A stretch of DNA of 63,528 nucleotides, counting the filler, from Nemertoderma westbladi (taxonomy: Eukaryota; Animalia; Xenacoelomorpha): NCBI GenBank assembly GCA_032718475.1. It is 3 parts of 3 records of this genome, joined end to end, with 100 filler letters (N's around TTAATTAATTAA, not from the genome) between each part and the next. Parts side by side here need not be neighbours in the genome. Positions count along the whole stretch, not along the records: positions 1 to 28,909 come from JAUCBJ010004116.1; 2 more parts are not named here. One strand, 5' to 3'. Positions 6,234 through 40,943 of this stretch are shown here, in pieces (the stretch's first letter is position 1; each line of letters opens with the position of its first letter). The translations under genes and the position numbers were made by a program. The notes below the pieces were generated by a model. The model ran no database searches and was not told the DNA's origin. It saw only the letters and a list, made by a program, of their open reading frames with translations.

Positions 6234-6430
6234 AAATTTAATAATGTGAAATAACGTCCAAGATATACAAAATTTACTAAGCCTTTACATTTTACTAGAG
6301 CGTTGCCTGATTTGATAACAGTAGAATGAACCTGTCTTTAGACTGGGTAGATTTTGTTTAAAGCTCATTTTCCAATACATGTCCCAGTAGTGGTTTCAAA
6401 CCATTTGGTGGTCACACATATAAATAACTA

Positions 6431-6985
6431 ATACTACCTCAAAACGAAATAATTGTTGCATATAAAAGAAACCCAAACCTAAAAGAACTTCTAGCACCAT
6501 CCAATCCATACAAACAATTATCATGCATGGATAACCCTGGTTGTTACAATTGTAGCGCTAAAAAGTGTGACTGTTGTGAAAATTACTTAATTGAAACCAA
6601 CCATTTCAAATGTGTAGCTACAGGCAAGACTTTTAAAATAAACAAACGACTAAACTGTTACTCGGAAAATGTAGTATATTTAGCTATCTGCATAGAATGC
6701 AATTTACAGGGTGTTGGCTCAACAATCAATTTCAAGAAGAGGCTTGGAAATTATAAATCTCATATAAAAAAAGGTGTGAAAAGTTGCAATATCGGCGTGC
6801 ATTTCATCGAAAAACACAACAAATCCTCCAAAAACTTGAAATTTATTTTGATCGATCAATTACCAGGAAGGGACAACTGCGTAGAAACAATAAAGAAACT
6901 AAGAAAATCGGAACGATTTTGGATTGGTATGCTGCTCACTAATCTAAAGGGCTTGAACTCCTTCCATGACTACATTCAACAATAA
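6431..6985 (+). CDS. Penelope-like element 3' fragment: Cys linker plus GIY-YIG endonuclease
   Basis: IIVAYKRNPNLKELL...CYNCSAKKCDCC...LNCYSENVVYLAICIECNLQGVGST...KRLGNYKSHIK...ERFWI...GLN, the typical C-terminus of Penelope-like elements. Confidence 0.85.
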   Translation: MLPQNEIIVAYKRNPNLKELLAPSNPYKQLSCMDNPGCYNCSAKKCDCCENYLIETNHFKCVATGKTFKINKRLNCYSENVVYLAICIECNLQGVGSTINFKKRLGNYKSHIKKGVKSCNIGVHFIEKHNKSSKNLKFILIDQLPGRDNCVETIKKLRKSERFWIGMLLTNLKGLNSFHDYIQQ

Positions 6986-7013: not shown

Positions 7014-8242
7014 TGTAAAAGCTTTTGTGGGATAACTGATACGTTTGCCTTTGCTGGCCAGTTCCCCCCCAGGCGCTGGAATACTCTAAAAGGGTTCTCT
7101 GACTGTATATATATTCCCCTCGCCCGCAAGGTACCTTTACAGGTGTTTTAACGGACATAAAAGTAATTCTGCTATATACGTGTTTTGGCGGACATGGTAA
7201 GGCAAAAAACCTGTAATGCACCAACTACCTTTCACAGCTTAGCCGTGATAATTCATATTACGACATCTAACAGCTGGTTGCTGACATGGAAACAGCCATT
7301 GGACGCACGGTTCTTTGTTTGGCTTGAGCCAATCGGAGCGATTTTTCCTGTCGACGTGTAGCTTTTCAGTCGATCATAAGGAGAGTGTTCAGTCTTACTG
7401 TTTTTACTTGATACTTTGTTGTTATTGCTGTCTAAGCCAGAAACACCGGCATTTTGGGAAGAACTCTAGTAAACTGCTTGAATTATCGAAAGTATAAACT
7501 GTTACCTAATGAAACTCACTTAACTCACTTAATTTAATTGCATTAATCATATTGTTTGTACTGTTATTTTACCGTCAGTTATTAATTGTACCTATTTGTT
7601 GATGGAAATATTGCTATTTGGATAATACGGATAAATCACCCAAATTCCCAATTTTCTTGATACACTACAGGTTAGAGAGACCGGCTATACATAACAATTG
7701 CGATTTATATTAATGTGGTGTGTATTGAATCCAATGTTATTTAGCAGACCCTACGTGAGTCAATTGCTGCTCTCTTTATGTGTGATCAAATATACTGACG
7801 GTCGGCAGAATAGTGTGTATGATTGTGATTGGTAACAAAGTATTTCCTAAAGAATACGCTTTATACTTTAATCATAAGCAGTATCGTTGCGTTTTAGTAT
7901 AAGTCTTAGTTCTGTTTAAATAGATAAAGCGCCACGTCCTAAAGGAACTGTTAATATTTCCCGAAAGCCAATAATATCTGTCAGAGATTAATTATTAACG
8001 ATCTATCGAATAATACATTAGGTATACACTGCAACCTTACACTGTAATAATACAATTCAAGCATCCGAATTCAGTCTCCCGGGTGTAGATCCATCGGGTG
8101 AATGATCGCGCATGGGCTGACTTCGGCTAATGTTTTGCGTATTAGCATAAAATATTGTCGTATGCTAAAGTGGTTTTAATTAACTAGAAGACATATAAAT
8201 TTTGGCAGGTTAAACTGCTAAAGGTCTTCAAAAGCGCGAACA
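7014..8242 (+). mobile_element. Solo LTR (1229 bp) of the B/C BEL-like family
   Basis: TGTAAAAGC...GCGCGAACA flanked by 5-bp TSD GTTAC (7009-7013, 8243-8247); homologous to LTRs at 39683-40932 and (reverse) 9910-11148. Confidence 0.92.
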
Positions 8243-8329: not shown

Positions 8330-8770
8330 TGTGGTAATTATATTATACAGTTGAACTCGCCAATATTGAGTCTATGACAAAGTTTGTCTATAATTGTACA
8401 GTAGATTGATATTTAGTTCGATTATTCATTACCTACATTGGGTTAATTAGCACTAGCATACGCGTCTGTTAATTAGTCAAGATATACAGTACTTACAGTA
8501 AATAGTATGTGCCGAATAAAGAGTCAACTACTAACAGTACAGTAGTTAGTACAGTATGTGCAGTATAAGGGGTCAACCAGAACTAATTACTAAATGGCAT
8601 TTTAATTATAAGGATTTTGGATCTCCGGCTCATTCGTTCAATTAAATTCATATACTAATTGTTACGGTAAATTCATACTTTATAATTTCGGTGTAATCGT
8701 GACGTTACTTGTATTAAATATTCTGTACGATAAAGTCATTAAATATTTTCATCTCTCTAAAATAACCAAA
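8330..8770 (+). repeat. 5' LTR of BEL element A
   Basis: Direct repeat of 26457-26897. Confidence 0.93.
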
Positions 8771-8786
8771 TGGTCCTTCGAACCGG
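8771..8786 (+). promoter_or_regulatory. Primer-binding site, tRNA-Tyr type
   Basis: TGGTCCTTCGAACCGG, one mismatch to the complement of the tRNA-Tyr 3' end (TGGTCCTTCGAGCCGG). Confidence 0.85.
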
Positions 8787-9004
8787 TACAACTACGAAAA
8801 GGAGACGTTGAAATGATGGAAGACAACTCACGGTCGGAACTCAATGCAATTGCGCGACAACAACGGACAACCCACTAATTACATCGGATTTCTCGGAAGA
8901 ATAAATCACATCAAACTCTTCGGATATAACTCAAAAGGTACGTTGGTTACATTTCACAACACCCAGTAAGATTATTTCTCTGGCAAATTAGATTATCATT
9001 CACC

Positions 9005-9909
9005 ATGGGTGATCTAACACGCCTTGTACAAATAAGAGGGCGCTATAGATCCAAGGCTACTAAGTTAGCCAAGGAAGCTGAGGCTCTTGCATGCGATCAA
9101 ATAACTTCAGAATCATTGACCAGAAGCAAACAATTACTGCTTCTAATACCAGATGTAAAAGCTCAATTAGACAGTCAAAACAAAGAAATCCATTTTCAAT
9201 TGAAAGATGATGATGTTGAAAATGATTTGTATCAGAGTGATGAATATAATTCCAGACTATTGCTTGCAATTTCTGGTTTGCAACAAGTCTGTTTAGATAG
9301 TGATCTTGACAAAACTATCTCTAAAGCGGAAGTTTCAATGCCCAAAACTAGTTCTGATATGGAAACACGTATTTTGCAACAAGCAACCTATAGAAAAAGA
9401 CTTCCCGCAATAGAAATAGAAAATTTCGAAGGTGATTACACAACCTTTCAACCGTTTTGGCAGTCCTTTACTAGTGCTATTGACAGCAACACCGCAATCC
9501 CAACTGTAGAGAAGTTTATATATTTAAAAAAATTTCTTAAAGGCAGAGCCAAACTGACAGTGGAAGGACTAGAAGTGACTGCTGAAAATTACAGTACAGC
9601 TGTTCAGATTATCCATGAAAGATTTGGACGCAAAAGTATGATTATTTCAGGTCATTTTAATAAAGTTTATAATATTCCAGTGTGTCGACATTTAAAGGAC
9701 TTGCGATCATTTTATGATAGTTTGATTCCCCACATTCGCTCCCTGGAATCACTTGGAATGATCTCGGACATAAATTCAGCCATGATATGTCAAGTAATTC
9801 TTGGTAAGTTACCGGAGTCAGTCAGAGAGAAATTTCACGAACATACCGAATCTGATGATTGTTTCAAAATCGATAAAATTGCAGATTTTATCAGAAGAAA
9901 AGCTGATGC
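9005..9909 (+). CDS. BEL A gag-pol, N-terminal part (DUF1759-type Gag)
   Basis: LPAIEIENFEGDYTTFQPFWQSFTSAIDSN...EKFIYLKKFLKG; rejoins 21572 in frame (RRKADA-MDASEY) after removing B and one TSD copy, giving 1888 aa. Confidence 0.93.
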
Positions 9910-11148
9910 TGTTCGCGCTTTCAGACCTTTGGCAGTTTAACCCACCAAATTAAGATGTCTTCTAGATATTAAATCGGTTTTTAGTCTATGACAAGTATTT
10001 GATTCACTACACTAGTCGAAACCAATCTGTGCGCGATCATTCACCCGCTGGATATTCCCGGGAGATTGGGTTCGACGGTTTAATTTTATTGCTATGTAAG
10101 CCTAATGTATTATTCGACTGACAGTACTATATAATCTCTGACAATATTATTCACCTTCGGTAATATTAACAGTTCCTTTAGGACGTGGCGCTTTATCTAC
10201 ATAAACATAGTTATGACTTAAACTACTCACAACGATATGGCTTAATTATAATTCACATATATGGCGCATTCTTTAGGAATTGCTTCTTTAACAGACTCAC
10301 TCATACACAATGCTGCACAATACTGCACACTAATCTGCCAATCTTCACTGATTTTAATCACATATAAAAGGAACACAGACTGACTCATGTAGGGTCTATC
10401 AAATAACATTAGATTCACTTCAAACCACTTTAATATAAGTCACAATCGTTTATCTGTAACCCTTCTCTCTTACCTTCGGTATATCAAGAATATTGGGTTT
10501 CGGGGTTATTTATCGTTATTCCAAATATAATAATTCATCAACCATATTATGAAGAACTGACGGTAAATGGCAGTATAAAACAACAATGAAAACACTGATT
10601 GTTATGAGTTTGCAATGTTTCAGCAGTCAGTATGTATGATCAGTTAGCAGTGATTCCATGAGTTTGATCGGTATGTCAGTACCGGTATGTCAGTTAAAGG
10701 ATATATGCCCTTTATAATTAAACCTACTAGTGTAAGACTAAAAACTGAAAACACGGAGGTGCCAAAAGCCGGTTCTTAGGCTCTAGGCAAAAACATAACA
10801 CTGAACTACTGAGTTTCTGTATATACCTCCAACACAAAGACAACAAACGCTCTGATTGGTCAACCTGAACAACGAGAGAACAGAGAAACAAAGAAACGTC
10901 GACGTGGCAATATCAGCTGCTAGCCGTCGTCATGGTAGCGACACTGTTTTCAAGAGTATCGAGCTTTTACGTCACGGAATTACGGATTATGTCCTCTAAA
11001 GTACAAATACAGAAGAAATAGCTCTTATGTCCGCTAAAACACCAGTACAGCAAGGACACGGCCTTTTTATGCCTGGTAAACCAACTACAGAGTACTTTAC
11101 GGGAAAAATAAGGAAAAATAACCGGACAATTCAGTAAAAGCTTTTACA
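9910..11148 (-). repeat. 3' LTR of element B
   Basis: TG...CA, near-identical to 20327-21566. Confidence 0.93.
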
Positions 11149-12205
11149 CCGCTCCCAGAAAATGGGATTTTCAGTCTATAAAATATAAAAATCACAGTTT
11201 CTAAAACATAAAGATACTCTAAACAGTTAGTCTTTCTTACGCAGACGGCGTTTACGCAGTTTTTTGAGGCTAGCAAGAGTCTTTTTCTCTTTGGGGGGAG
11301 CCACTTTACTAGGAGGGCCATAACTCCTGGGTGAAGGGTGCAATATGATTGCATCAGAAGGTGTAGGATTGTGGTCGGGGTATCCGCCGTTTCGATATGC
11401 TTCTCCTCGAGCTGATTTTCCTCCGCTCGTAGCTGGATACGTTCATCCAAAAACTCTCGCAGAGAATGGGGTTGTCTAAGTGCGATATCTTCTTAGAGAT
11501 TCTGGATTTCACAATCGAACTGAGATAAAGACAATTCGTTTATCGATTGGACTTACTGTTATAACTTACGTTTATCTGAACAAACGCAGGTTTCTTTTTT
11601 GATCTTTATAGAATAGCGTTTAACTCGTTTCGTACAACGCTCTCCTTCACTTTGATGAAGGGTTGTATCGCGTTAAACGGGATGACCATACGGTTGGATA
11701 ATGATATTAGGTGTCTGCGTCATAATCCAGCTAGGTAAGATGGGCGGCTAGCTAGAAATCACTGTCGGAGTGTTACCGATTAATTGTTAGGGTAGCACTA
11801 GATCTTTGAACAGTGAATACAGTCCGCGAGGATCCGCGACACCACCAGGATCGCAGGTCTGAGGTCCAACTAAGGAATGAGGAGGTTTGACCGAGTATTC
11901 CGGGACTCTGATCGTAGGTTTACTCCAGGATCGTTCGAGCCGAGTGAGCATAGGTGATACGTCAACAAGTTTCGGTTTACATGGATGTTTATGTCTTTCC
12001 GTTTATTATTTGGGTCTAGGGCGTTTATCGTAATAATACCAAAGACGCACGTCTGGTAGGGTAAACGCGGGTGACATTTATTTGTTGTTACAATGCTTCT
12101 ATCAAGAATTCCAAATATACTTTGGAGTTACCGCGTCCATTTGTTTCTTTAGTGTCTTTTCTTTCGAGTCGATTTCGAATAGAATTTTCGCATTCGAATT
12201 TCAGT

Positions 12206-12682
12206 TTATGGTTCCGACTCCGCTGGGCAGGATATATAGTCGACATAGTCCGTATTGTGTAAATCGATAGGATGACCAGTAGTTAAGAAGACCATATACG
12301 TACCATTACGCTGCGTATATCGAGCAGCGAATTTTCTATAGTCCAACTCGCGCGAGAGCTGCACTTGGGACATTGTCGGTTCGATATAACGACCATCGTC
12401 CTCCGCAGCAGTTGGACTAACGTCGCCGCGTATTAAGCTATCAACAAACGCTTGCAAAAATAGAGTATATCGCTCCCCGATACCAAGACCATCTTCTATC
12501 AACTCCGTCATATCTGCTATATATGAGTTTATCCATATTATAATGAGTTGATATTTAGGCGAGCGGGCGTCGCTGCCTACCCCAATCAACCCCGGACAGT
12601 ACGAGATCCTCAGCGCCGATGTGTCGTCGCCGCTGTACTTTCGCCAACGACGTAGCCGCACAACAACAACGACAACCGACAC
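12206..12682 (-). CDS. Unknown accessory ORF in the 3' region of element B (probably part of a degraded longer frame extending to about 11230)
   Basis: 158-aa frame on the element's sense strand in a GC-richer block between the PR ORF and the 3' LTR; no recognisable motif. Confidence 0.4.
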   Translation of the reverse strand: MSVVVVVVRLRRWRKYSGDDTSALRISYCPGLIGVGSDARSPKYQLIIIWINSYIADMTELIEDGLGIGERYTLFLQAFVDSLIRGDVSPTAAEDDGRYIEPTMSQVQLSRELDYRKFAARYTQRNGTYMVFLTTGHPIDLHNTDYVDYISCPAESEP

Positions 12683-14167
12683 AAGTCACTCGACTGTCCG
12701 TCCCAAAGACTTAGATGTACTTCAGGTTTTCCTTGGAGAGTTAGGTTACTTTTACGATTGCGACTAGCTACTGTAAACACACCTTAGTAGTAACATTCGC
12801 CTATAAACTCACAAGTACCACACACACAACTTGTCACAAATTACACACACTCGGGTCACTTGTCCGTTAGTCAATGCCTTCCAGAATGTCACTGTATTAT
12901 TATGTATCCTTGGATACTATCAGTGCACTATTTATTCCCTATGCTATTCAATGGGACAAGCTTTCTATTGTTCTTTTAACTCAATTCTAATTCTAGCGTG
13001 GTTGTTGCTATGGTGACATTATGCAAAGCTAGCGGTAGAATTAGAGCAATTCCAATGCATACAGATCTGGGATGTTATTTAATAGTATTCTTTAATAGTC
13101 AATGTTCTGTTTTATACATGACTTTATGAATTTTATCGGCTATTGACTATGTTTGGGAGACTTTCGCACACTCATACACATAATAAGATAAATCTCCGCT
13201 CCCTTGATCTATTAATTAATGGAATTTTGGGAATGTTATAAATTGCGTAAAAATGGCAATTTATTAAATTCATTAAAAGGCATGAATTTAAATTTATTCC
13301 CTGAAATTTTATTATTTGATAATTAAATTGACATATTTTGATTCTAGAATATGTCTGGGGACACAAGATCCTTAATTCTATGACAATTGTCTTTTTAAGA
13401 ATATCGGTAAATGCTACGATATCTTAATTGACTAGAATTGCTGAAGGATCTGAATTTTACAGATTTTGATTTATTAGATTTGCAAATATTAAATAATTAA
13501 TATTTGAGATGGGCACCGATTTATTCCAGAACTTGTCTGGGGACGTTAACCACTGATTCTAGAATTTGTCTTTCAAGTATATCGGTGGGTGCCGCGATAT
13601 CTTAATCGACTAGAATTACAGATGGTCAAAGGGTTTAACAGATTTATTTTGCGTTATACGCTACTGTTAAAGGGACATCACGCTACTATATGTATTATTT
13701 AATATACGGTATGAGAGCAATATCGCACGAAGCAATGTCAGTGTGAAGAGGCAAGTCGTTTCCAAGGTCTACCCAGAGCTTGGTTTAGCCGAGACACGAG
13801 GATCTGAACTTTGCATTCCTAATACTCTGCCTACCAATAATACTTAAATATAGTAGTGGCTTTATTGTACTTTAATAAGTACGGACATTTCATCTTACTG
13901 TAGTTACGTATTTGTAATGTAATACGGACAGTAAGGAAAGAGAAAAAGAATTATTTCTTGCCGTCGCATTAAATATAATATATATGTAATTAAGTAATAA
14001 ACGCGAATATATATTGCACTAATCTACTAAATAATCGCTAAAATAACATTCTACTGAATAAAATTAAAGAAAACGATTATAATAAAATTACATAGTAATA
14101 CATACAGAAATATAAAAATAATAAAATAATATAAAATAATAGAGTCACACACCCACTCCATATGTTG

Positions 14168-16516
14168 TTACGTTATGGAGTCCCTAGATGTTTGAAGGAT
14201 TAGGGAGGTGGTCGTGGGAAGAGAATCTTGCCTTCCACAGTTTCCGGAGAGTCCTCCATTCCCTTCCGATAAACACAAACGACCGACTGGGTGATTGAGT
14301 CGCTGCATCCTGAATACAATTCCAGGTTTCCTCTTCGTCCTGGAATAGTGACGATAGAAACATCGCTCAAAGTATATGACGGCGTCACAAAGCCGATTCC
14401 AGGAGCTATAGTGGTCCGTCGCTCTCTGCAGGAGAGGTGAGAGTCCCTGCGAGACGTCTGATGTTCCAGAGCTCCAATCGCTCTCTCTGATCTTCATGAA
14501 GGATCCACTCGCGGAGGGGAGGCCCAGATCCACGGCGTCGTCCCTGGCAACATGTAATACCGACAGATCTATCCCGGGTTCAAATAACTCCGCTCCACCC
14601 GCCCGGGTTTTAGGTTTAACTTTCTCCGCTCCCTTGGCTGGTCTAATCTCAGTCGGAGTAAGATGGGGAGGCCATTCATCCTCCTTACTCAGGAAGTCGG
14701 GTTCACCTAACCGGTCTGTAGTATCTGTCAGTTCTTGAGGAGTTACTCCTCTGGAAGCGATGTCCGTTGGATTAAACTTCTTGGGACAATATCTCCATTG
14801 ATCTAAATTGGAGCTAATATCGTCATTATCTGAGGAGTATGGTGTTCCCTCAGTTGGGTCGTCTCCCTCACTAGTATCATCTTCCCATTTACTCCGCTGG
14901 CAGACGCGATCTTGAAGCAGTCTTTCTCTGAGCGTTCTACGGGAAGGTCCAGTAAGGTACCAACCTACTCTAGTTCTTACCGCATAGGGCTGAAGTGGTT
15001 GCGGTTGAGCAGGTCGTTTCTCTAATGTCTCCAGCGCCTCATGCGCGTTTTGGCCGATGAGTATTTGCACTCCAGGATAATCAGTCTGGAATCGAGGTAT
15101 GTTAAGATGTTGGATGCTCTCATCCTCGTCCCAATTATAAAGGTCTGCTTGAGTAGTAGCGAAGTTCTTTATAGCCACCATTTTCACTGACCTGATGCTA
15201 TGTTCTCCTAGTTCGTCCTGGGGGGTGGACAACTCACATATATAATAGTCGGCAGCTACAGTAGAATTCCAAACCTGCATGATCCCTGACAGGTTTAGCT
15301 TGGTTCGGAACTTGGGTTGTCCAGCAAAGATGACTTCGGCTAGTTCCCTATCGATGAATGTTCCTGTGCTACCGGAGTCCAGGAGGGCGTTCACTATATA
15401 GCTCTTCTGAGGTCCGTGGACCCGTAACTGGACTACAGGAAATTCTCGGATTCCTATATTGGAAGTTGGCGCTTTCCAAGATGGTTGTTGATCGGAAGTA
15501 GTTAAGGTAAGGTCGCTGTCTGTGTCTTTCTCATACACGAGTGCTCGATACACTGCGGTGGTGTTTATTAGGTAACAGGATTCGTTTTGGTCGGAGAACT
15601 CGTCCGTATAGAATCCTTCCATCTCAGATTGATCAGTGTCGTTCACATCACTGAATTGGACATGTAGTTCGGACTCACTTACCTGACTCGGGCTGTTTCG
15701 TTCGAATTCCGTGTGCAACAAGATATGATGTTTTGCGCCGCACTTTGCACACCTTGCGTCGGAGTTACAGGTTCGCCGTTGGTGTCCTCGTCTGAGGCAA
15801 TTATAACACAACCGCTTATCCCACATGACTTCACGTCTATCCTCGAGTGATTTCCTCAGGAATTTATCACACGCATTTAAACGGTGGGGCCCGTCGCACA
15901 GCACACATTTCGGCTTGATGTTACTTACTTTAACCTGTGCTATGTGGTGCACACTTGTTCTTTCCTCGGGCTTTCTCACCTGAATTCCTTTAGGAGACGT
16001 AGGAGGGGTTTTTTGTACCGGTTCCCTTCTGTCATTGGGTCGAGACTTGGATTTACTTACCTGTTCTTTAGGCATTTTATTGACATAATAAGGCCTGTCA
16101 GTGTCTTTCCCGCTGTCCTCTCCTTGAGAGGTTTGGCTTTCACCGTCGTCGGTATAACATACTGGTGTTACCCTTCTCCTAGAAACGGGTTTCTCACTTA
16201 CCTTGTTTTCCAATGTCTTCTCTCTGGACTGCCTTAGGAGCTGTAATTTCACTTCTCTATCTAAGAATGACATGAGATCAGTCATGGTAGGGTCTCGTCG
16301 TTGTTGTTCCATCATATATAACACCTTCTTATCCCAGCGTGTACCTACTCCACCCTTGGGCAAAGCAGATGCTAAGGCTCTTACAACCATAGAATTCTGG
16401 TATTCATGAGACTTACCTAGCCAATCTAATTGTCTACAGATCTCCTGAATCTCATCGGAAAACTCTATAATCCCGCTGCTAAGAAACTTTCGGGGCGCCA
16501 TTAATTTTGCATACAA
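14168..16516 (-). CDS. Element B Gag C-terminus, zinc knuckles, aspartic protease and pol remnants
   Basis: CVLCDGPHRLNAC, CYNCLRRGHQRRTC, CAKCGAKHHILLH; ALLDSGSTGTF; AVRTRVGWYLTGP; then WRYCPKKFNPTDIASRG (post-RNase H motif) and YSSWNRL. No YxDD or DDE motifs. Confidence 0.9.
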   Translation of the reverse strand: MYAKLMAPRKFLSSGIIEFSDEIQEICRQLDWLGKSHEYQNSMVVRALASALPKGGVGTRWDKKVLYMMEQQRRDPTMTDLMSFLDREVKLQLLRQSREKTLENKVSEKPVSRRRVTPVCYTDDGESQTSQGEDSGKDTDRPYYVNKMPKEQVSKSKSRPNDRREPVQKTPPTSPKGIQVRKPEERTSVHHIAQVKVSNIKPKCVLCDGPHRLNACDKFLRKSLEDRREVMWDKRLCYNCLRRGHQRRTCNSDARCAKCGAKHHILLHTEFERNSPSQVSESELHVQFSDVNDTDQSEMEGFYTDEFSDQNESCYLINTTAVYRALVYEKDTDSDLTLTTSDQQPSWKAPTSNIGIREFPVVQLRVHGPQKSYIVNALLDSGSTGTFIDRELAEVIFAGQPKFRTKLNLSGIMQVWNSTVAADYYICELSTPQDELGEHSIRSVKMVAIKNFATTQADLYNWDEDESIQHLNIPRFQTDYPGVQILIGQNAHEALETLEKRPAQPQPLQPYAVRTRVGWYLTGPSRRTLRERLLQDRVCQRSKWEDDTSEGDDPTEGTPYSSDNDDISSNLDQWRYCPKKFNPTDIASRGVTPQELTDTTDRLGEPDFLSKEDEWPPHLTPTEIRPAKGAEKVKPKTRAGGAELFEPGIDLSVLHVARDDAVDLGLPSASGSFMKIRESDWSSGTSDVSQGLSPLLQRATDHYSSWNRLCDAVIYFERCFYRHYSRTKRKPGIVFRMQRLNHPVGRLCLSEGNGGLSGNCGRQDSLPTTTSLILQTSRDSIT

Positions 16517-18173
16517 ATACCTCAGCTATGTCATTCCTATTACCATACCTGATGTTTAGTGTATCCCAAACTTGTCTTAATCCATCTGGATGTCCAATAA
16601 ATTTTAACGCCATTGACTTGGGAGGTCCTTCCAAACATTCGATGAGGAATCTAAGTTTCTCTCCGTTAGATAGTACAGAGTTCTGTATGTTATCTTTGTA
16701 ATATTCATTAAAAGGTAACCATTTCATCTCATCTCCATTGAACTTGACAATCTCTCCAACCTTTACCGCTTGCCGGGCTTCGGTTCTAGCCATTTGACGC
16801 GTAAAACTTTCTTGGGCCATCGTGCTATTTAATATCGAGTTATCGGTATATAAATTTCTCGGATTATGATCAGTTCTATAGGGAATATCATTATCAACAG
16901 GTCTATAATTACCCTTAATAGGGTTCACTATAGGAGTTTCTACTTCGCTAGCAGTATAAATGCGTGTAGGCTCCACACCTTGCGCATGAGATACTTCAGA
17001 CCTAACAGGTTGACACATTGTTACAGAGGGTGGTGGTATACCCTTTTTTAAGTTTACTAATTTATCGCGTTCTAACGCGATACTTTGCTGCACTTCTTGC
17101 AACTCTAACTTACTTTCCCTTACTGTGCCCTTGAACTGCTGGACAGTCTCCTGCATCTGTCCGAGCAGGATATCCATCCCCCGCCGTCTCTCGTCCACCC
17201 ATTCGACCACCGAAGCGGGAGTCGCCAACGTTGTAGCGGGCGGACGAGGGACAACGGGAGACAAATCTGGAATATTTCGCTCGGGGTCCAGGACCTGAAC
17301 TGTCTCCTGGGCAGTTCTACTGGGCACAGGTAGCTTAGTGCTATGTAGAGGGAATTTAGAGGTAGCTTCAGGGAGCACAGGTGTCTCTATCACCGAAGGG
17401 GTGATTTCAAGAACAGGTCCAATTATTTCAGGCTCATCTACTATAGGAGGGAGTCTTTCTACTCTAATTGGGTCTGAAGGCTCAGGATTACTTAGATCTA
17501 CACTAGCTAGTTGCCTTCTCACGGCTGTAGGCAAATCAGGCAATTTCTGCCAATGTAGCGCCCTTCTACGTCCGTTATAACGAGATTTATTTCTTCTGCC
17601 TTCAGGATCTGTTGTATCTCCTTCATCAGAGGATGTAAATCCCTGTCTCTTGGAAGTAGTCCGACTTATCAGCTGCATATCACTAGCCGTTATCTGCTTA
17701 TTTAAGTAATCGTGCTTCTCTTGAAGATTCTCCAACTCTAGTTGGACCTTTTCTTCAGATGCCCTCCGTTCCGCTTCTGCCACTGCCATTGCCGCTGCTG
17801 CTTTTGCCTTTGCCTCTGCTTCTGCTGCTGCCGCTTTTGCCTTTGCCGCTGCTATTGCTGCTGTCTTTCTGTCTTCTATCTGTTTTTTCTTCAACTGTTG
17901 TTCCCATTCTCTAACGATGCGGATTCTTTCATCAATTTCCGCTCTATTCGCTGCCAACATTTCCGCATCTATTGCGTCCAACACAAACTTGGCTCCTTCG
18001 CTATTAGGGTTAAGTCCCTCTAACCTTCTCCTCAATTCGTCATCACCTAAAAAACGTTGATAGTCTGACAGATAGATATCAATGGCATCCCTCTTATGCG
18101 GTTTCTCTGCTGTCGCTTCACTCTCCGTTGTATCTAGTAGACTGTCTGACAGGTTCTGCTTTGCGTCAGACAT
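16479..18173 (-). CDS. Element B Gag N-terminal part (coiled coil plus start of DUF1759-type domain)
   Basis: IVKFNGDEMKWLPFNEYYKDNIQNSVLSNGEKLRFLIECLEGPPK; continues in the +1 frame into 14168-16516. Confidence 0.88.
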   Translation of the reverse strand: MSDAKQNLSDSLLDTTESEATAEKPHKRDAIDIYLSDYQRFLGDDELRRRLEGLNPNSEGAKFVLDAIDAEMLAANRAEIDERIRIVREWEQQLKKKQIEDRKTAAIAAAKAKAAAAEAEAKAKAAAAMAVAEAERRASEEKVQLELENLQEKHDYLNKQITASDMQLISRTTSKRQGFTSSDEGDTTDPEGRRNKSRYNGRRRALHWQKLPDLPTAVRRQLASVDLSNPEPSDPIRVERLPPIVDEPEIIGPVLEITPSVIETPVLPEATSKFPLHSTKLPVPSRTAQETVQVLDPERNIPDLSPVVPRPPATTLATPASVVEWVDERRRGMDILLGQMQETVQQFKGTVRESKLELQEVQQSIALERDKLVNLKKGIPPPSVTMCQPVRSEVSHAQGVEPTRIYTASEVETPIVNPIKGNYRPVDNDIPYRTDHNPRNLYTDNSILNSTMAQESFTRQMARTEARQAVKVGEIVKFNGDEMKWLPFNEYYKDNIQNSVLSNGEKLRFLIECLEGPPKSMALKFIGHPDGLRQVWDTLNIRYGNRNDIAEVFVCKINGAPKVS

Positions 18174-19544
18174 GTTTGTGTGTACAGTTGAATGTCTACT
18201 GCTGTATTACAGTCTGAGCAAGTCTAGTAACTCAGTATTAACTGATAGCCTAGTAATTAATTACCGGTACTGCTACTCAGTGTAGCGTGATATATATAAT
18301 ATATTAGAATACCGGTATGCTTATAGTATATATAACTATTATTACAGACTAGGTTTATCACAGAATACCGGTATAATTTTAGCACAAATATATATAAATA
18401 TATAATAGGCCTATCGGGAATACCGGTATACAGCTTACAGTTTGTAGTATATATAATTCTGGACTAGAATTAATTACAAGTACCGGTATAATTTCAGCCT
18501 AAATTTATAGAAATAAAGATAATAGGCCTATTGTAAATACCGGTATATCAATTATTTTAAATAACTGAATTTCTGAATTTTAAGGGTTTACTTGGTTACT
18601 TTAACTTACTTTATTGCCGTTATTTAAGCAGTAGTCCAACTGATATTGAGACCTAATTGTTGTATGGTAGGCCTACTATTTATAAATCGTTAGATTTGAT
18701 TTATAATATATATATATACCCTTTTAATGGGTTTAGTCAATGTTTGAAATAAATGTTATTATTTCTGGGGAGTAATCACTACACAAAGCGGTGCGCTTTC
18801 AGTGAAGTGTTACTTATAGGACACTAAAACAAATAATTCTAATTTACCTAAGTTACTTAATTCTACAAATTACGTACAATTCGGGTGAGATTACAATCTC
18901 TAAATAAACACAAAATTTTACAAAAACACAAATACGAATTTTTAGGGTATTTTTACAAGAAGTCTACAAACCAGCCTAACAAAGGGTTAGAAAACCGGTT
19001 ATTACAACGGACAGGGTACTACGGTATTTGAAATAATAAGTAGTAGTAAATACACTGCGTTGTCTAGATAGGAAAATACCACCGCCTGACGACCTATAGC
19101 CGTATCGCTATAGGTTCTACGTTATGTATCACGGAGTGTTCCTACCTAGAAGTTAATAGAGCTAATCGAATGTGCCTATCAACCACTTTACAACACAAAT
19201 ATAATGTCTACAATAATTACTTCGGAAAGTACTGTACACTAAACCCTAAATTAGGTACGAGTACTTATATAACAGACAATCAGTAGTTAAATATACTTGA
19301 ACAGCTAAAAGAACCACGGCATCTGCTAGAGTGACCGATGCACAAAATCACCAGTCTTTACCTACGCCGAGCAGCCCGTGTAGTACCGGGGTTAATTTAA
19401 CTATAGCGGTATGTATAACAAACACAATTACTGTAGGAACAAACTTGGGGAATGAATGTTGCGGATAATCGCATAAACTCTGAATAATAAATATTACGCT
19501 ACGCGTACAAACTACTCAAACAAAATACAGACCGAACACTGACA

Positions 19545-20060
19545 GACTACTATCAAGCCTAAACAAACTACGGTATATGCAGACTCCGAAATGATTAGGG
19601 AGTATGCGCTCTAACCCAGTAGTGCGACTTATTCTTTAGTTGGGGGTTTACCTTACAGCGTTCGCTGCCCCTACTGCCTAACCGTACTTAATCGGACAGA
19701 TGATCTACACACGCGGCAATCCGTTCAGACCTAATAACAGCCAGACAACTATCCAGCCTACAAATTATCTAAATAAAATTATACGCTACCCGTACAGACT
19801 TACACAAACAAAGTACAGACTAAACGATGGCAGACCACTCTCAAGCCTAAATAAACCACAGGACATGCAGACTCCGAAATGATTAGGGAGTATGCGCTCT
19901 AACCCAGTAGTGCGACTTATTCTTTAGTTGGGGGATTACCTTACAGCGTTCGCTGCCCCTACTGCCTAATCGTACTTAATCGGACAGGTGATCTACACAC
20001 ACTGCAATTCGTTCAGACTTAACAGCAATCAGACAACAGCTCAGCCTACAACTTGTCTGT
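19545..20060 (-). repeat. Tandem duplication with 288-bp period in the leader of element B
   Basis: AGACTCCGAAATGATTAGGGAGTATGCGC at 19581 and 19869. Confidence 0.85.
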
Positions 20061-20314
20061 ACAATATGATCAGGCTTACACGCCTTCTGTTCAATACTGG
20101 CCTACAAATAAATAAAACTTGACAGAAATAAGTAAAAATCTCAATAAAAAACCAGGGCTGCAGTCCCTGATGAATTATTAAGGCCTACTGGTATATAACA
20201 ATCAAAATCGAATAATACGGCTGTAGGTACCGGTCCGGATGATCAGGCAGTCAGGCCTACTGGTTACCGGTCGACCGGTACTTTCGACTTTATTGCTTAC
20301 TGCAATAAAGAAGC

Positions 20315-20326
20315 TATATCCTTTAA
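20315..20326 (-). promoter_or_regulatory. Non-tRNA PBS-position sequence of B, complementary to its own LTR
   Basis: Sense TTAAAGGATATA abuts the 5' LTR; its perfect complement lies at 21112-21123 (and 10694-10705). Confidence 0.7.
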
Positions 20327-21566
20327 TGTTCGCGCTTTCAGACCTTTGGCAGTTTAACCCACCAAATTAAGATGTCTTCTAGATATTAAATCGGTTTTTA
20401 GTCTATGACAAGTATTTGATTCACTACACTAGTCGAAACCAATCTGTGCGCGATCATTCACCCGCTGGATATTCCCGGGAGATTGGGTTCGACGGTTTAA
20501 TTTTATTGCTATGTAAGCCTAATGTATTATTCGACTGACAGTACTATATAATCTCTGACAATATTATTCACCTTCGGTAATATTAACAGTTCCTTTAGGA
20601 CGTGGCGCTTTATCTACATAAACAGAGTTATGACTTAAACTACTCACAACGATATGGCTTAATTATAATTCACATATATGGCGCATTCTTTAGGAATTGC
20701 TTCTTTAACAGACTCACTCATACACAATGCTGCACAATACTGCACACTAATCTGCCAATCTTCACTGATTTTAATCACATATAAAAGGAACACAGACTGA
20801 CTCATGTAGGGTCTATCAAATAACATTAGATTCACTTCAAACCACTTTAATATAAGTCACAATCGTTTATCTGTAACCCTTCTCTCTTACCTTCGGTATA
20901 TCAAGAATATTGGGTTTCGGGGTTATTTATCGTTATTCCAAATATAATAATTCATCAACCATATTATGAAGAACTTGACGGTAAATGGCAGTATAAAACA
21001 ACAATGAAAACACTGATTGTTATGAGTTTGCAATGTTTCAGCAGTCAGTATGTATGATCAGTTAGCAGTGATTCCATGAGTTTGATCGGTATGTCAGTAC
21101 CGGTATGTCAGTTAAAGGATATATGCCCTTTATAATTAAACCTACTAGTGTAAGACTAAAAACTGAAAACACGGAGGTGCCAAAAGCCGGTTCTTAGGCT
21201 CTAGGCAAAAACATAACACTGAACTACTGAGTTTCTGTATATACCTCCAACACAAAGACAACAAACGCTCTGATTGGTCAACCTGAACAACGAGAGAACA
21301 GAGAAACAAAGAAACGTCGACGTGGCAATATCAGCTGCTAGCCGTCGTCATGGTAGCGACACTGTTTTCAAGAGTATCGAGCTTTTACGTCACGGAATTA
21401 CGGATTATGTCCTCTAAAGTACAAATACAGAAGAAATAGCTCTTTTGTCCGCTAAAACACCAGTACAGCAAGGACACGGCCTTTTTATGCCTGGTAAACC
21501 AACTACAGAGTACTTTACGGGAAAAATAAGGAAAAATAACCGGACAATTCAGTAAAAGCTTTTACA
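20327..21566 (-). repeat. 5' LTR of element B
   Basis: TG...CA, 1240 bp, with CCAAT and AATAAA on the sense strand. Confidence 0.93.
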
Positions 21567-21571
21567 GATGC

Positions 21572-24500
21572 TATGGATGCCAGTGAGTATATCGCTACAA
21601 ATAGTAATATTAGTGGATCTAACTACGCTAGACAATCAACCCCTAATTATAATTACAGGAATCCTAACGCTTCAAAGTTAACCTCTACAGCTTCGGCGAT
21701 GGTAACAAGATCTGACTACGACAATAATAATCAAACATCAGCTGTTTTCTGTTCATATTGCAACGGTAATCATTCATCATTACGGTGTCCAACCTACACG
21801 GATCTTGATTCAAGAAAACAACAACTGCGAAATGATGACCGATGCTTCATTTGCCTCAAACCCAGGCATACAGCGAGGGATTGCTACTCAGGTAAACAAT
21901 GTTACCAATGCCGCGGAAAACATCATGTAAGTTTATGTCGTAAAATGGAACAAAAATTCCCACTCAATAATCCAAACCATGCACGCGGTTCAAACCCACA
22001 TCAAGCCCCTCCATTTACTCCAGGTCCACATCATGTCAATGCTCCCCATCCTGGTTCTTATAGTGTGTCTAATCGGAGCCAAAGTGGTACATACAATCAA
22101 AATATAAACAAAACAAGTGAATCTAGTCACATCACTTTAAACGAGAATGCAAATGAATTTGTCCCAAAGCCGATGGCTAATTCCAAAACCCTGAACTTCA
22201 TGGTAGAAGGACGACCCCCTACATTATTGCAGTTTGCAACCGGTACTATTTCAAATGATATTACTTGTAAGAAGACCAATGTGAGAATTCTTTTTGATAT
22301 TGGAGCCACATCATGTTTTATTACAAATCAAAAGCGAGAATTACTCGAGTTGCCAACATTATGGCGTGATTCATTAACACTTGATGTATTTATGGACAAA
22401 AGGATAGAAGAAAGGGATGTGGTTAAATTTGTTTTAGAATGTAAATCGGGAATTAATATTGATATTACAGCATACTCTGTGCCATATATAAGTGAGAAGA
22501 AACAAGAACGCGCCTGCGTTACTGTAAATAAATATAATTTTCCTCATTTAGAAGGTCTTCCTCTAGCAGATACGGAAACGCATTGTACGGATACGAAGAT
22601 TGACATTCTCATTGGCGCAAATTACTATTGGAAAATTGTTACCGGAGAGAAAATACAGAGCGAATCTGGTGAAGGTCCAGTGGCAATCAAAAGCCACCTA
22701 GGTTGGTTATTGTCAGGTCCATTATGTAACGAAACATATTCTAATGTAATTAACATCATGATGTGCTCTATTTCCAGAGAACCCATAGATATGCGGTCTA
22801 AATCAACAGAAATTCTAGCTATTCAAGGATCACTAAATGTAGATGACACCCAGAAAAAATATCAAGACTCAACAGATGATGGAAACCTGATGCAGTTACT
22901 CAAACAGTTCTGGGAAGTGGAATCTTTAGGAATCGCAAGTGCATCTGAGTCAGAGGCGTGGATATACGACAAATTCAAACAACTGGTGAAATTTCAAGAT
23001 GAAAGGTATGTTGTATGTTTACCATGGAAAGAAATTATAAAACCAAAATTAACTGATGACAAGAATATTGCGTTGAAGCAGCTTATTTCACTAATGCATC
23101 GTTTACGAAAGGAATATTTACTTCTAAATAAATACAATTCAATAATTAATGAACAATTTGAACGCGGCATTATTGAAAGGGTTCCTGATCTAGAGACAAC
23201 AGAAAATGCAATTCATTACATTCCTCATCATTGTGTGGTCAAATTAGACAAGTCTACAACCAAAGTTCGTATTGTATTTAATGGCAGCTGCTCTTCTAAG
23301 AAAGGAGTAAGTTTAAATAACTGTTTATATACTGGGCCCTTTCTAGGTGCCAGTTTATTTCAAATTCTCATTCGTCTACGGTCATATAAAGTGGCGTTAC
23401 TGGGAGATATCGAAAAGGCCTTTCACATGGTAGGTTTAGAAAACCAAGATCGGGATGCAGTGAGGTTCCTATGGTGGGAGAATCCATTCGACGAAAATAG
23501 CAAGATTGTCACTTACAGGTATACTCGGGTATGTTTTGGTTTAGTTTGCAGTCTATTTCTTCTTCAAGGTACTTTAAAGTTTCATGCTAGCAATTATATG
23601 TCACAGGAGCCAGAACTAATTGATCTCATTACGGATAGTCTCTACGTCGACGACTTAAACGGTGGCTCACATGATGTTGTTTCTACCTTTGATATATACA
23701 AACGAGTTAAGACGATATTTCGGGAAGGAGGATTTATTATGAGGAAATGGAAAAGCAACTCAAGTGAACTAAACAAAATGATTGAGGATGAAGAAAACAA
23801 GGAAAATAAGGATCTAGACAAGAAAGAACAAAAGGTGGTAAGTGATTCTATGGTGGAAGAAGATTTATCTACTTACGCGGACATAATTCTTAGTCCCACA
23901 GCTGATAATAATTCAAATTCTAAAGTTCTCGGTATTGGCTGGAATTCACAGAAAGATACATTATTTATTGATTTATCAAAGGTTATCGGCAAGGATAATT
24001 CAAAGATCAATCGGAAGACAATCCTAAAATTAACAGCAAGCATTTACGATCCTTTAGGTTTTATTTCCCCAGTTGTTATTATACCAAAAATATTATTTCA
24101 GAAACTAACTGTAGGTGCTTTCAGCTGGGACCAACAAATACAAGGTGAACATCTGGACACATGGAACAGCTGGGTATCTGACCTAGAGAATTTAACTAAT
24201 TTTGAAATACCTAGATTTTATTTGACCTCAGGTGATTTCAATTGGACCGATTCTAGATTGGAATTACACGGATTCTCAGATGCATCGAAATATGCATATG
24301 CAGCTGTTGTATACATCAAAGTCGTAAATAGACATGGAAAGGTAACTGTTCAGGTGAAAGAAATTCCACGTCTGGAGCTTTTAGGTACGTTAATTCTTGC
24401 AAGACTTATTTCGAATGTAGCAGATGCTTTATATAAGTATAACGTAACTAGTATTTTGTGTTGGACAGATTCTACAGCAGTTCTATATTGGATTACATCT

Positions 24501-26333
24501 GTAAAACGTCAATATAAACAATATGTTGAATTTAGAGTACAGGAAATTCGCGGACTAACACCACCAGAGACATGGCTTTACGTTCCTACATCGTTGAATC
24601 CCGCCGATGCGCCATCTCGAGGCGTTAATGCGAACTATGTTATGAGTAAAGAATGGATATACGGCCCTAAATGGTTGAACGCAGGAAATGCAGAATGGCC
24701 GCAACAACCAAACATCATCCAATCCAATGAAGATAAAACAATAGATGCTAAGATTATCAGATCTGAAATGGTTTGTTACACAACGGTTAACAACATCGTA
24801 TTTGAGAATGTTTCTCGGATCATCAAATGTGAGTCATTCAGTAAGTTAAATCGATTATTACATGTGACGTCATATGTAAATAGATTTATTTACAACTTGA
24901 AATGCAAGGTGTCAAAATCGAACAAATATTTAACAGGTCAGTTGACAGTCCCAGAAATTGAAAAGGCTCGTGATATGTGGATAATTGCAGTTCAGGGAGA
25001 AACATTCAATGCCGAGAAAATAAAGCAATTAAAATATCAACTGAATATAATACAGTTTCAGGGTATCTGGGTTTGTAAAGGAAGATTAGACAACGCAATG
25101 ATATCGGAAACAGCCAAAAGACCAGCTGTTCTACCAAAGGTCCACCATTTAACCAGTCTCATTATCCAAAAATGTCATGAAATTGTGTTACACCAGGGTC
25201 TTGCTTCGACCTTAGCCCAAATTCGAGAGAAATATTGGATCCTTCAGAGCAGACAAGCCATAAAAAAATGTCTAGCGAAATGTGGGGTTTGCATACGTCA
25301 CCAAGGTAAACCATATTGTCCCCCAGAATCCCCACCGTTACCAACATTTCGGGTACAGGAATCGTTGCCATTCAATACAGTTGGATGTGATTTTGCAGGA
25401 CCATTTCTTATTAAACCAATATACGGAGGCATTATAGCAGACGGAGATCTTTCAAAGTCATATTTGTGCATTTTTACTTGTGCCGTCACAAGGGCGGTGC
25501 ATTTAGAGGTAGTCACTGATTTAACAACTTCTTCATTTATTGAATGTTTTTCCAGATTCATTGGTCGGAGAGGAAAGCCAACATTGATAGTAAGCGACAA
25601 TGCTAAAACTTTCAAAGCAGCTTCAAAAAATCTTTACATAATTAATCAACGATTTCTTAAATCTAAACAGGTACAAGACTTCTTTGTAAACCAAGGCATA
25701 GTGTGGCAGTTCAATCTGGAAAAATCACCTTGGTGGGGAGGATTCTTCGAAAGAATGATACAAACGGTGAAACGATGTTTGGTGAAGGTTATTGGACAAG
25801 CGATATTGACACTCATGGAACTCATAACGGTATTTATTGGAATCGAAGCGGCTATTAACTCAAGACCATTAACTTATTGCTCTAATTTTCCAGGTGACAT
25901 GGACATTGAACCTTTAACCCCCTCTCATTTCTTAGTAGGGAAACGCCTTACAGCTATGCCAAATCTCGGTGTGAGGCTTGTTACTGAATATACCTCTTCA
26001 ACAGACGTTCGACAGCGATGGCGACTACAGGAAATCCTACTCAACCATTGTTGGAGACGGTGGCGGACGGAATATCTACTAAATCTAAGACAGCAACATT
26101 ACGGGACAGCGAGGACTCAGAAAAGAGTCATTCAAGTTGGGGAATCGGTGATCGTTCGAGACGCTGGTCTACACCGCTCTATGTGGAAGTTGGGTCTCGT
26201 AGAGTCGTTGTTCCAAGGGAGAGATGGACATGTACGTGGAGCAGTCGTTAAGGTCTGGGATCGCAAATCTGGCAAATCACAAACTCTAAAGCGACCTGTT
26301 CAAGAATTGTTTCCCTTGGAAATTGGTGATTGA
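21572..26333 (+). CDS. BEL A gag-pol, C-terminal part (zinc knuckles, PR, RT, RNase H, integrase)
   Basis: Three Cys/His knuckles; ILFDIGA; GDIEKAF; LYVDDL; LHGFSDAS; IPRLEL; WTDS; NPADAPSRG; HHCC; GCDFAGP, SDNAKTF and GFFERM (DDE). Confidence 0.96.
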
Positions 26334-26449
26334 AATACATAGCAATTATATAAATAAAACGGTGGCGGTTAATTTATTATCTGTTTGGTTACAATATTTA
26401 TTTAAATTATTTATAGTCGTTTTACATGTAGATATTTGCGTCGTTCAAC

Positions 26450-26456
26450 GGGGGAG
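26450..26456 (+). promoter_or_regulatory. Polypurine tract of BEL A
   Basis: GGGGGAG immediately before the 3' LTR. Confidence 0.8.
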
Positions 26457-26897
26457 TGTGGTAATTATATTATACAGTTGAACTCGCCAATATTGAGTCT
26501 ATGACAAAGTTTGTCTATAATTGTACAGTAGATTGATATTTAGTTCGATTATTCATTACCTACATTGGGTTAATTAGCACTAGCATACGCGTCTGTTAAT
26601 TAGTCAAGATATACAGTACTTACAGTAAATAGTATGTGCCGAATAAAGAGTCAACTACTAACAGTACAGTAGTTAGTACAGTATGTGCAGTATAAGGGGT
26701 CAACCAGAACTAATTACTAAATGGCATTTTAATTATAAGGATTTTGGATCTCCGGCTCATTCGTTCAATTAAATTCATATACTAATTGTTACGGTAAATT
26801 CATACTTTATAATTTCGGTGTAATCGTGACGTTACTTGTATTAAATATTCTGTACGATAAAGTCATTAAATATTTTCATCTCTCTAAAATAACCAAA
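26457..26897 (+). repeat. 3' LTR of BEL element A
   Basis: Direct repeat of 8330-8770. Confidence 0.93.
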
Positions 26898-28460: not shown

Positions 28461-28548
28461 CAAATGTAAAAGCTTCTGTGGGATGTAACTGGTCCTTCGC
28501 CCCGCAACCCAGTTTTTCCCCCATACGCTAAAATACTCTGAAACCTAC

Positions 28549-28909
28549 TGTAAAGGTTTTTCTGGGATATGACTGATTTGTTTTCTTTGCTAACCAGTTC
28601 CCCCCTCCAAGGCGTTGGAATCCTTTAGGAGGGATCTGAGCTGTTCGATTGGCCAGCCGGCTTGGGAAGGTTGCCCCAGTTACCCATAGCCCTGCGTTGA
28701 GTTAGTTCTGATTTCGACCAATCCCGAGCTACTGAACTGAAATTATCCTGTCTCACTGCTGATTACATGTGTTGAACGGGATTCTTGGAAAATAAGAGAG
28801 CTAAAGTCACGGGACTTTTGTTATGATTTTGAGACTTTATTATCAGAGTTTTAAGACCGTGTTGAGATAGCGAAATGTTTTCTGCCTTTTTGTAAGAACA
28901 TTAGTAGGC
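28549..28909 (+). mobile_element. Diverged LTR 5' portion of the B/C family, cut by the assembly gap
   Basis: TGTAAAGG...CCAGTTCCCCC...GGCGTTGGAAT...AACATTAGTAGGC resembles 39683-40140. Confidence 0.75.
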
Positions 28910-39163: not shown

Positions 39164-39682
39164 TTAGTTAATTGGATACTCTTGCTTTACTAATTCAATA
39201 AGGTCGTTAAACGGTGAACGTTTGTGAAGCATCCTCCACCGATACTCATCCAGGTGACTTTGAAGTAAATTCAATCTAGTGCCTTTCCGTTGCTTCATTA
39301 TCATAAGTTTGGCATGTCCCCATAATCCTTCTATAAGTTGCGTGTTCGCTCCGGTGATCTGGTCTACGAATCTACCACGCCCCTTCTTACTGTGGTTTAC
39401 GTGTTTGTGGAAGTATTTACCGCTGCCGTCACAGGCTTTCCATGGAAAACGTTTGCTAGTTATCCCAACAGTTTTGCCGCAGTATGCAGCCCATTCGTCG
39501 CTAAATATCGTTGTACCACCTTTGACATTGCTCTCTAGAATCGGACGCAAGGTTCTCATGTTCCTTCTTTTAACTATGAACATTCTAACGTCTACTTCTC
39601 GATCCGGTCGCTTCCAAGCTATGCCAAAAATCCAGGGTCCAACAACCATAGTACCATAATTGTTAGATCTAGTTCCTACAAC
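39164..39682 (-). pseudogene. Merlin DDE transposase, C-terminal half
   Basis: NYGTMVVGPWIFG...TIFSDEWAAY...VNHS...NTQLIEGLW...HLDEYRWR; joins 44989 in frame after removing C. Confidence 0.92.
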
Positions 39683-40932
39683 TGTAAAAGCTTTTGTGGG
39701 ATATAACTGGCCCTTTTGCTTTGCAATCCAGTTTCCCCCCAGGCGCTGGAATACTCTAAAAAGCTCTCTAACTCGAATGATGCAAAGCGACCGGCTGATT
39801 GGCTGATTTGTTATACAAGGGGCTCTTTGCTATGTTCTATCGGCCAACCAGAGCTATAGCAGCAGAGTATGCAACCAGGGCAACCGAGCGGAGTGACTCA
39901 TTTTGTGTGTTGGCCAAGGGTTGCAAAATTCCTGATAGTTCGGCATTTAGATATTCGTGGAACTTGTGGAATCTGGTGTTCTGCCAATGAGAGCTATTCC
40001 TCTCTGTGTAAAAGATACCTGCAACGGTGTTAGGGACAGTAGCAGTTTTTTGTGACTCTGTTGTGTTTTTTCTATCTAGGCCAAGAACACCGGCTCTGGA
40101 GTCAATTGTTTTCAGACTTTAGAAGAAACATTAGTAGGCTTAGATTATAGAGCGTATAACTGTTATCGGCCCAATTATCAGCGCAGTAGCGCAGCGGTAC
40201 AATCTTATATTGTTATAATCTTAACCCACCGTCTTAATGCTTTACTGTTGTTATTATTAGTATCAGTTGGTTGCATATTATTATTTGGAGAACATCTATA
40301 AAGAACCCAAATTTCCCAATTTTCTTGATACACTACAGGTTAGAGAGACAGGTTATATATAGCGATTGCGACTTATATTATCGTGGTTTGTAGTGAGTTT
40401 AATGCTATTTGATAGGCACTACATGAGTCAATTGCTGTTCTCTTCATATATGATAAAATTCATTGGCGGTCGGCAGATTAGTGTGCAGTATTGTGCGTTA
40501 CCGGTAGTGTGCATGATTGTGGCTGATAACTAAGCATTTCCTAAAGAATGCGCCTCATACGTGAATCATAAGCCTTACAGCCTTACCGTTGTGTTTAGTA
40601 TAAGTCATATCTCTGTTTACCTAGATAGAGCGCCACGTCCTAAAGGAACTGTTAATATTTCCCGAAAGTGAATAATACTCGTCAGAAATTATTTATTAAC
40701 GATCAATCGAATAATACAGTAAGCTTACACTGCAATAATAAAATCTAAGCCCCATCCGAATTCAGTCTCCCGGGTATATCCAGCGGGTGAATGGACGCGC
40801 ACTAGGCTGGCTTCGGATAATGTTGTGTTTATTGGTATTAAATACTTGTCATTTACTAAAGTCTATTTATAAACCAAAAGACATATAAATTTTGGCAGGT
40901 TAAACTGCTAAAGGTCTTCAAAAGCGCGTACA

Positions 40933-40943
40933 ATAACAGTTAT
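40933..40943 (+). promoter_or_regulatory. Non-tRNA PBS-position sequence of C, complementary to its own LTR
   Basis: ATAACAGTTAT abuts the LTR; its complement ATAACTGTTAT lies at 40156-40166. Confidence 0.65.

Follow-up and report, generated by a model that had tools for sequence, protein, structure and literature searches.

The window, that is the whole stretch of DNA analysed here, comprises 63,528 nt of Nemertoderma westbladi (GCA_032718475.1) in three record parts joined by 100-N filler, positions 1-28,909 coming from JAUCBJ010004116.1. It contains nested LTR elements. Element A is a BEL/Pao element carrying RT, RNase H and integrase domains, and element B is inserted within its gag; a further element, C, and a solo LTR, D, complete the set. 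By their sequences, B, C and D are a single BEL/Pao-derived LTR family. The features used below are the following.

8330-26897, plus strand: element A.
21566-9910, minus strand: whole element B, target site duplication (TSD) GCATC.
20327-21566, minus strand: 5' LTR of B, 1240 nt, TGT..ACA.
9910-11148, minus strand: 3' LTR of B, 1239 nt, with a second copy of the site at 10694-10705.
21112-21123, minus strand: candidate self-primer of B, LTR position 444-455, 785 nt from the LTR end.
20315-20326, minus strand: primer-binding site of B, adjoining the LTR.
20288-20310, minus strand: hairpin of 9 bp just 3' of the primer-binding site of B, the same in C.
20266-20279, no strand assigned: 14-nt palindrome past the hairpin of B, the same in C.
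21273-21277, minus strand: CCAAT box of B, 154 nt upstream of its site; aligned boxes at 39984-39988 in C and 7329-7333 in D.
20502-20507, minus strand: AATAAA of B, candidate poly(A) signal, 616 nt downstream of the start of its site; aligned hexamers are AATAAA at 40737-40742 in C and AATACA at 8049-8054 in D.
16479-18206, minus strand: 5' part of the gag of B; DUF1759 starts at its end, with a frame change inside DUF1759.
14168-16525, minus strand: 3' part of the gag of B, zinc knuckles, protease and post-RNase H motif.
11149-11156, minus strand: purine tract of B, adjoining the 3' LTR.
39683-44988, plus strand: whole element C, TSD ACAAC.
39683-40932, plus strand: 5' LTR of C, 1250 nt.
40156-40166, plus strand: candidate self-primer of C, LTR position 474, 766 nt from the LTR end.
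40933-40943, plus strand: primer-binding site of C.
40947-40991, plus strand: hairpin (40947-40969) and palindrome (40978-40991) of C.
44404-44988, plus strand: 3' LTR remnant of C, the final 585 nt of the LTR, joined to early gag by a deletion.
7014-8242, plus strand: solo LTR D, TSD GTTAC.
7493-7505, plus strand: the version of the site in D, 737 nt from the LTR end.

Element A, which lies outside the B/C/D family and serves as an internal control, has a TGG-type primer-binding site at 8771. The LTRs of B, C and D have TG..CA ends and 5-bp TSDs, and are 62-67% identical in global alignments (860/1356, 837/1342 and 897/1341 columns); the two LTRs of B agree in 1237 of 1240 columns. Solo LTR D, which the earlier note had missed, provides a third version of the LTR site. 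The leaders ahead of gag exceed 2 kb in B (18200-20326) and C (40933-43288) and contain an internal duplication of 288 nt, with an additional 38-nt tandem array in C. The 14-nt palindrome common to both leaders is possibly a dimerisation signal, as far as its letters can tell. Elsewhere in the window, 28465-28640 holds a tandem pair of sequences similar to the opening 80 nt of the C and D LTRs, with no matching LTR end in the window; other mobile-element remnants lie at 6428-6985, 39164-39829, 59317-60543 and 61225-61947 (GIY-YIG, IS1595-like DDE and two RT fragments).

Element B encodes gag with DUF1759 (E-value of 2.9e-07 in ORF1), zinc knuckles and a protease. The post-RNase H motif of its relatives follows only ~45 residues beyond the protease end, hence RT and RNase H are missing from B, and no integrase match was found in it. 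RT, RNase H and integrase are likewise absent from C, both elements being BEL/Pao derivatives. The BEL/Pao origin of B asserted in the earlier note is confirmed by DUF1759 and by the domains of its relatives, all 15 of those scanned carrying Peptidase_A17 or DUF1759. Our search retrieved no close or autonomous relative of the B gag-protease, the best stretches being ~25-50% identical; a search of viral contigs with alignment A2 gave no relatives, and DNA patterns derived from the hairpin after the binding site had no match among viral and metagenome contigs. In 52-row trees, B is a long, deep branch placed outside the clade that holds A (support 99-100) and also outside the clade of the related loci described below (support 92-94). 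AU tests on the gag-protease columns rejected neither attachment of B (p-AU of 0.68 and 0.75), and both constrained trees outscored the quick free tree. Ahead of the 3' LTR of B lies ~3 kb of non-pol sequence (11149-14167, minus strand), with short ORFs of no known family, including one at 12206-12685 that has no Atlas match, and a basic stretch at 11227-11442. The barnacle protein P0031 aligns with B over the protease and the post-RNase H motif, with no RT or RNase H match; judging from this alignment, a similar loss of RT and RNase H may have occurred in its lineage.

The first 12 nt past the 5' LTR of B (20326-20315) are perfectly complementary to positions 21123-21112 of its own LTR (12/12), and the first 11 nt past the 5' LTR of C (40933-40943) to positions 40156-40166 of its own (11/11). 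In both elements the pairing begins at offset 0 and halts at the LTR edge, and TGG is absent from the 50 nt that follow the LTR. The two LTR sites are homologous, aligned behind a common TAGTAGG..TTATA; they differ at 4 of 11 positions, and the post-LTR sequences differ at the same four paired positions. As B and C share ancestry, the independent evidence consists of these four paired changes and not of two separate matches. The earlier note had claimed the lack of a TGG-type site, both complements at homologous LTR positions and the four paired differences: letters, coordinates and site alignment all bear it out, as they do its caveat about the near-palindromic 11-mer of C, which is a palindrome around one base.

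Among 20000 Markov-simulated LTRs, only 3 held a complement of the B 12-mer anywhere, and 72 a complement of the C 11-mer. Within the window itself, 1097 of 124552 12-mers and 1316 of 124554 11-mers (~1%) have a complement in the preceding 1240 nt, a higher rate than the simulated one in this repeat-rich stretch. At offset 0, control comparisons reached only 4-6 nt: 6 for the B LTR against the C leader, 5 for the C LTR against the B leader, 4-5 for the 3' flanks and 4 for element A. The best control match at any offset from 0 to 5 was 8 nt.

The site of solo LTR D is one A longer than that of element C and ends in the letter C, from which a third type of binding site is predicted, with one T more than that of element C. 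This prediction was written down ahead of a comparison with public contigs of several runs aligned to 40900-40980, in which 18 of 34 loose-ended alignments were listed. At least 11 contigs of run X1, at least one of X4 and at least one of X5 (guessed to be RNA) follow C to 40941, then show the four letters predicted from D and continue into the hairpin of the B/C/D family. The letters of 40933-40941 are not printed in these alignments, so that the first nine positions of the D type are inferred, with 2-3 differences allowed over 42 nt; the X5 piece has 2 differences and the X4 piece 3, while D predicts 2. In the window, the predicted 12-mer occurs once, in D.

The B-type binding site was found in at least 12 contigs of X1, and variants of it in X3, with position 1 changed (at least 3 contigs) or positions 1 and 5 changed (at least one contig). 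Among the alignments listed, substitutions in C-like copies fall only after position 11 (40945 and 40946). These variants are unphased, no contig spanning both the binding site and the LTR site, and the partner LTR sites of the two X3 variants are not among the contigs seen. Contigs on 19900-21700 showed no variant in the site or the binding site among the 40 of 211 variant entries listed, a set uninformative on this point. The occurrence of several binding-site variants in one species indicates that the binding site is not constrained to match a single host RNA.

We extended the comparison to related BEL/Pao elements. An alignment of 7 relatives led to 79 fetched loci (taken from the best 80 of 517 confirmed), which represent 59 families at 80% identity, a sample biased to one side of the BEL/Pao tree. 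A direct repeat marks the 3' end of the LTR in 14 of the loci, or 13 families; in the other 65 the repeat is absent or truncated at the contig end, or the flanks are short. Among the best 80 of 517, none of the 13 families has TGG within 5 nt of the LTR end so defined. After dropping L009 and L024, whose repeats do not end on CA or TA, pairing with the own LTR over at least 10 nt (10-15 nt) was present in 11 of 11 clean-ended families, and over at least 11 nt in 9 of 11, again among the best 80 of 517; its position is constant within 0-4 nt in all eleven. The excluded L024 has a 12-nt match of its own when a nearby end is picked post hoc. Among 169 cross pairs, only 11 have 10 nt or more; 6 of these extend to at least 11 nt, all of them among L015, L016 and L079, which have similar sites. 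An unanchored scan of 66 loci gave own pairing of at least 11 nt in 27/66 versus 31/150 cross pairs, and at 12 nt 18/66 versus 11/150: an enrichment, but too noisy to classify loci.

The eleven families pair in two ways. L032, L037, L045 and L046 have contiguous pairing of 10-12 nt at offset 2-4. In L015, L016, L019, L020, L026, L079 and L042, pairing of 11-15 nt exists only across the junction left when a GT..AG stretch of 76-175 nt is removed from the LTR (L020 and L021 being grouped together). Donors are GTAAG in six of these seven families and GTTG in L042, whose non-canonical donor was admitted after inspection. Complementarity that splicing must first create points to a partner made of RNA. 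As B is not nested in this self-pairing clade, those relatives support the mechanism by analogy only. By eye, L037 and L046 have an apparent second short helix past a bulge after the main duplex, which suggests a primer of 25-30 nt. Also by eye, the spacer between LTR end and site in L019, L020, L026, L032 and B (2, 3, 4, 3 and 0 nt) looks equal to that between the G-rich tract and the 3' LTR in these five, a pattern broken by L045, L079 and L042. In the B/C/D family, donor- and acceptor-like words are aligned in all three LTRs, ~277 nt apart in B (20614-20890, minus strand); an intron was discarded there, being unneeded for the match and with no such joint among 8 listed.

In the LTRs of B, C and D, the site is preceded by a CCAAT box at a distance of 154-171 nt and followed by a poly(A)-like hexamer after 556-616 nt. 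On sequence grounds, this spacing fits a site placed at the start of a long R region; because of the common downstream hexamer, we rejected a role of the site in polyadenylation. If transcription began at the T|A that opens the site, the primers would be 11, 11 and 12 nt long, while an initiator-like YTAGTA ~24-27 nt upstream of it could be a second start candidate.

We consider it probable that the family uses 5'-proximal, Tf1-like self-priming from its own LTR RNA, with cleavage at the duplex edge and enzymes acting in trans. The self-priming hypothesis of the earlier note is supported by the prediction from D, by the further variants and by the pairing in 11 of 11 clean-ended families. Transcription would start past the common CCAAT box, at the site itself or a short way ahead of it, the start or cut being predicted 445-475 nt into the LTR. 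By looping out 737-785 nt of LTR RNA, the site would reach the primer-binding site, which lies between two local hairpins. The RNA would then be cut at the 3' edge of the duplex, on the analogy of Tf1 by an RNase H, provided in trans by an autonomous partner; given the lack of RT, RNase H and integrase in B, the copying enzyme would come from elsewhere. From the freed 3'-OH, minus-strand DNA synthesis would begin at the final LTR base, which would account for the offset of 0; primer and binding site could drift together, there being no host RNA that they must match.

The best-surviving alternative, which we nonetheless regard as unlikely, keeps self-priming but draws the primer from the site copy in the 3' LTR (U3) or from a second RNA, with a transcript start downstream of the 5' LTR site. 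No TATA box common to B, C and D is found 25-30 nt upstream of the site. TATAAAG stands only 11 nt before it in B, and the sites of B, C and D all begin with TATA; such words at or just before the site, clearest in B, mean that the site could lie upstream of the transcript start. CCAAT words are aligned 155-210 nt downstream of the site as well, B and C are more conserved in the last 550 nt of the LTR (425/582 columns) than upstream of the site (271/520), and the 3' LTR of B has the same site. Against a 3' copy speak the upstream CCAAT box, at a similar distance in all three LTRs, and the hexamer, so far downstream that the site is not a natural 3' end; Tf1 and Tj1 also use the 5' end, according to passages of PMC7175516 and PMC4600332.

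A structural switch, in which the duplex would act in circularisation, dimerisation, packaging or translation control while priming takes another route, seems less probable still. The conserved hairpins and palindrome around the site would suit it, and long-range pairings are common in retroelement leaders. However, the duplex of B and C starts exactly at the first post-LTR base, where the primer end must lie, the next 50 nt of both contain no other tRNA-type site, and the position is as constant among the relatives as described above. For the preferred self-priming reading, folding does not decide, as the predictions depend on the chosen end-point: the duplex is weak (-11.6 kcal/mol in B, -10.6 in C), with a pairing probability of 0.92 for one end-point of B and 0.006 for C, and it is absent from a B fold with an end 30 nt longer. 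B and C have in common a hairpin just inside the LTR end. No pretzel of the Tf1 type was found in common to both: the site is flanked by local hairpins, and no long-range duplex flanking it was found in both elements. The 3' half of the LTR (20327-20930, minus strand; 40320-40932; 7630-8242) is its most conserved part and folds into common hairpins, with two-sided changes in 13 of 125 predicted pairs over the three sequences.

Priming by a host tRNA fragment or another small host RNA, with the LTR match as a by-product, is in our view very improbable, even if half-tRNA priming is known in Ty1/copia lineages (excerpts of PMC6317226). One family here has at least five binding-site variants, and every variant with a known LTR site matches that site (B and C directly, D partly by inference). 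No Rfam match was found in 19400-21600, which also led us to reject a ribozyme or known RNA family, and ARAGORN detected no tRNA in the window. Finally, a chance match, or an inverted duplication of the DNA in single copies, for which the ~1% background and the near-palindrome of C could be invoked, is largely refuted by two elements with four paired changes at the same aligned position, by the predicted third type and by the junction-spanning matches in relatives.

The preferred reading, Tf1-like self-priming, has precedents outside BEL/Pao. The Tf1 transcript anneals to the binding site with its first 11 bases and is cut by RNase H between bases 11 and 12 (passages of PMC7175516); the pretzel structure of the Tf1 type is treated in part of bioRxiv 10.1101/2022.12.06.519325, and self-priming of Tj1 in excerpts of PMC4600332. 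The B/C/D family resembles Tf1, Tf2 and Tj1 of the Tf1/sushi group (Ty3/gypsy chromoviruses) in that the binding site by the 5' LTR complements ~11 nt of the own LTR: complementarity of the Tf1 type, at least 10 nt at offset 0-5, is 12 nt in B and 11 nt in C, at offset 0. Unlike that group, the family is BEL/Pao-derived (DUF1759 gag, best relatives with Peptidase_A17), its proteins being of the BEL/Pao type, with neither a Ty3/gypsy pol nor a chromodomain integrase. In contrast to Tf1, the loop measures 737-785 nt, no three-duplex pretzel common to its members was found, and B lacks its own RT and RNase H. As read from these features, the family works like Tf1 self-priming but is no member of Tf1/sushi. 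Self-priming was also predicted for the TAR lineage (plant Ty1/copia, e.g. Houba and Osr-1) and Tcn1, from complementarity of at least 10 bp starting 0-5 bp past the LTR, according to excerpts of PMC6317226; B and C show such complementarity, whereas TAR and Tcn1 belong to other superfamilies and other hosts.

The ICTV describes Belpaoviridae as replicating by host-tRNA priming, with an 18-nt site complementary to a host tRNA (PMC8742986). The B/C/D family resembles them in its LTRs, whose length falls at the top of the 0.2-1.2 kb range, and in its 5-bp TSD, gag with zinc knuckles, protease and purine tract. It departs from them in that B and C have neither a pol with RT, RNase H and integrase nor a TGG-type site complementary to a host tRNA 3' end, as against the TGG-type site of A. 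By these sequence features, the family is BEL/Pao-derived and yet fails the tRNA-site feature of the Belpaoviridae definition.

The earlier note was aware of no description of self-priming for BEL/Pao, in agreement with our search of titles, abstract starts and passages (of papers with few subscription titles among them), which returned no such report. PMC3118150 mentions no primer, PBS, tRNA or priming, the primers mentioned in PMC554778 are PCR primers only, and the passages of PMC3601003, PMC8220671, PMC5443660 and PMC2656454 hold nothing on BEL/Pao priming. In the literature so covered, self-priming is known from only two other retrotransposon groups, and not from BEL/Pao. It is worth comparing the family with a different kind of element-made primer. 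The Cer7-type BEL elements of C. elegans reportedly were proposed to encode their own tRNA-like primer, possibly a BEL/Pao precedent for a primer that the element makes itself. By comparison, B, C and D have as partner a short site within the LTR.

A broader claim, to which we give an even chance on these comparisons, is that host-tRNA priming would not be the rule in BEL/Pao: a broad radiation would self-prime via a contiguous or spliced primer, and the B/C/D family would be a separate deep branch, possibly of independent origin, with a ~750-nt loop, copies without enzymes that are primed in trans, and free joint drift of primer and binding site. LTR finders that require a tRNA site miss or mis-score elements that have none, and 3' tRNA fragments would have no hold on such elements. 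Primer formation can be tested directly here, thanks to the natural series of paired variants and the very long loop; the relatives whose match spans a junction link it with host splicing. If true, self-priming in this family would contradict the ICTV definition of Belpaoviridae and make BEL/Pao the third LTR superfamily with tRNA-independent priming.
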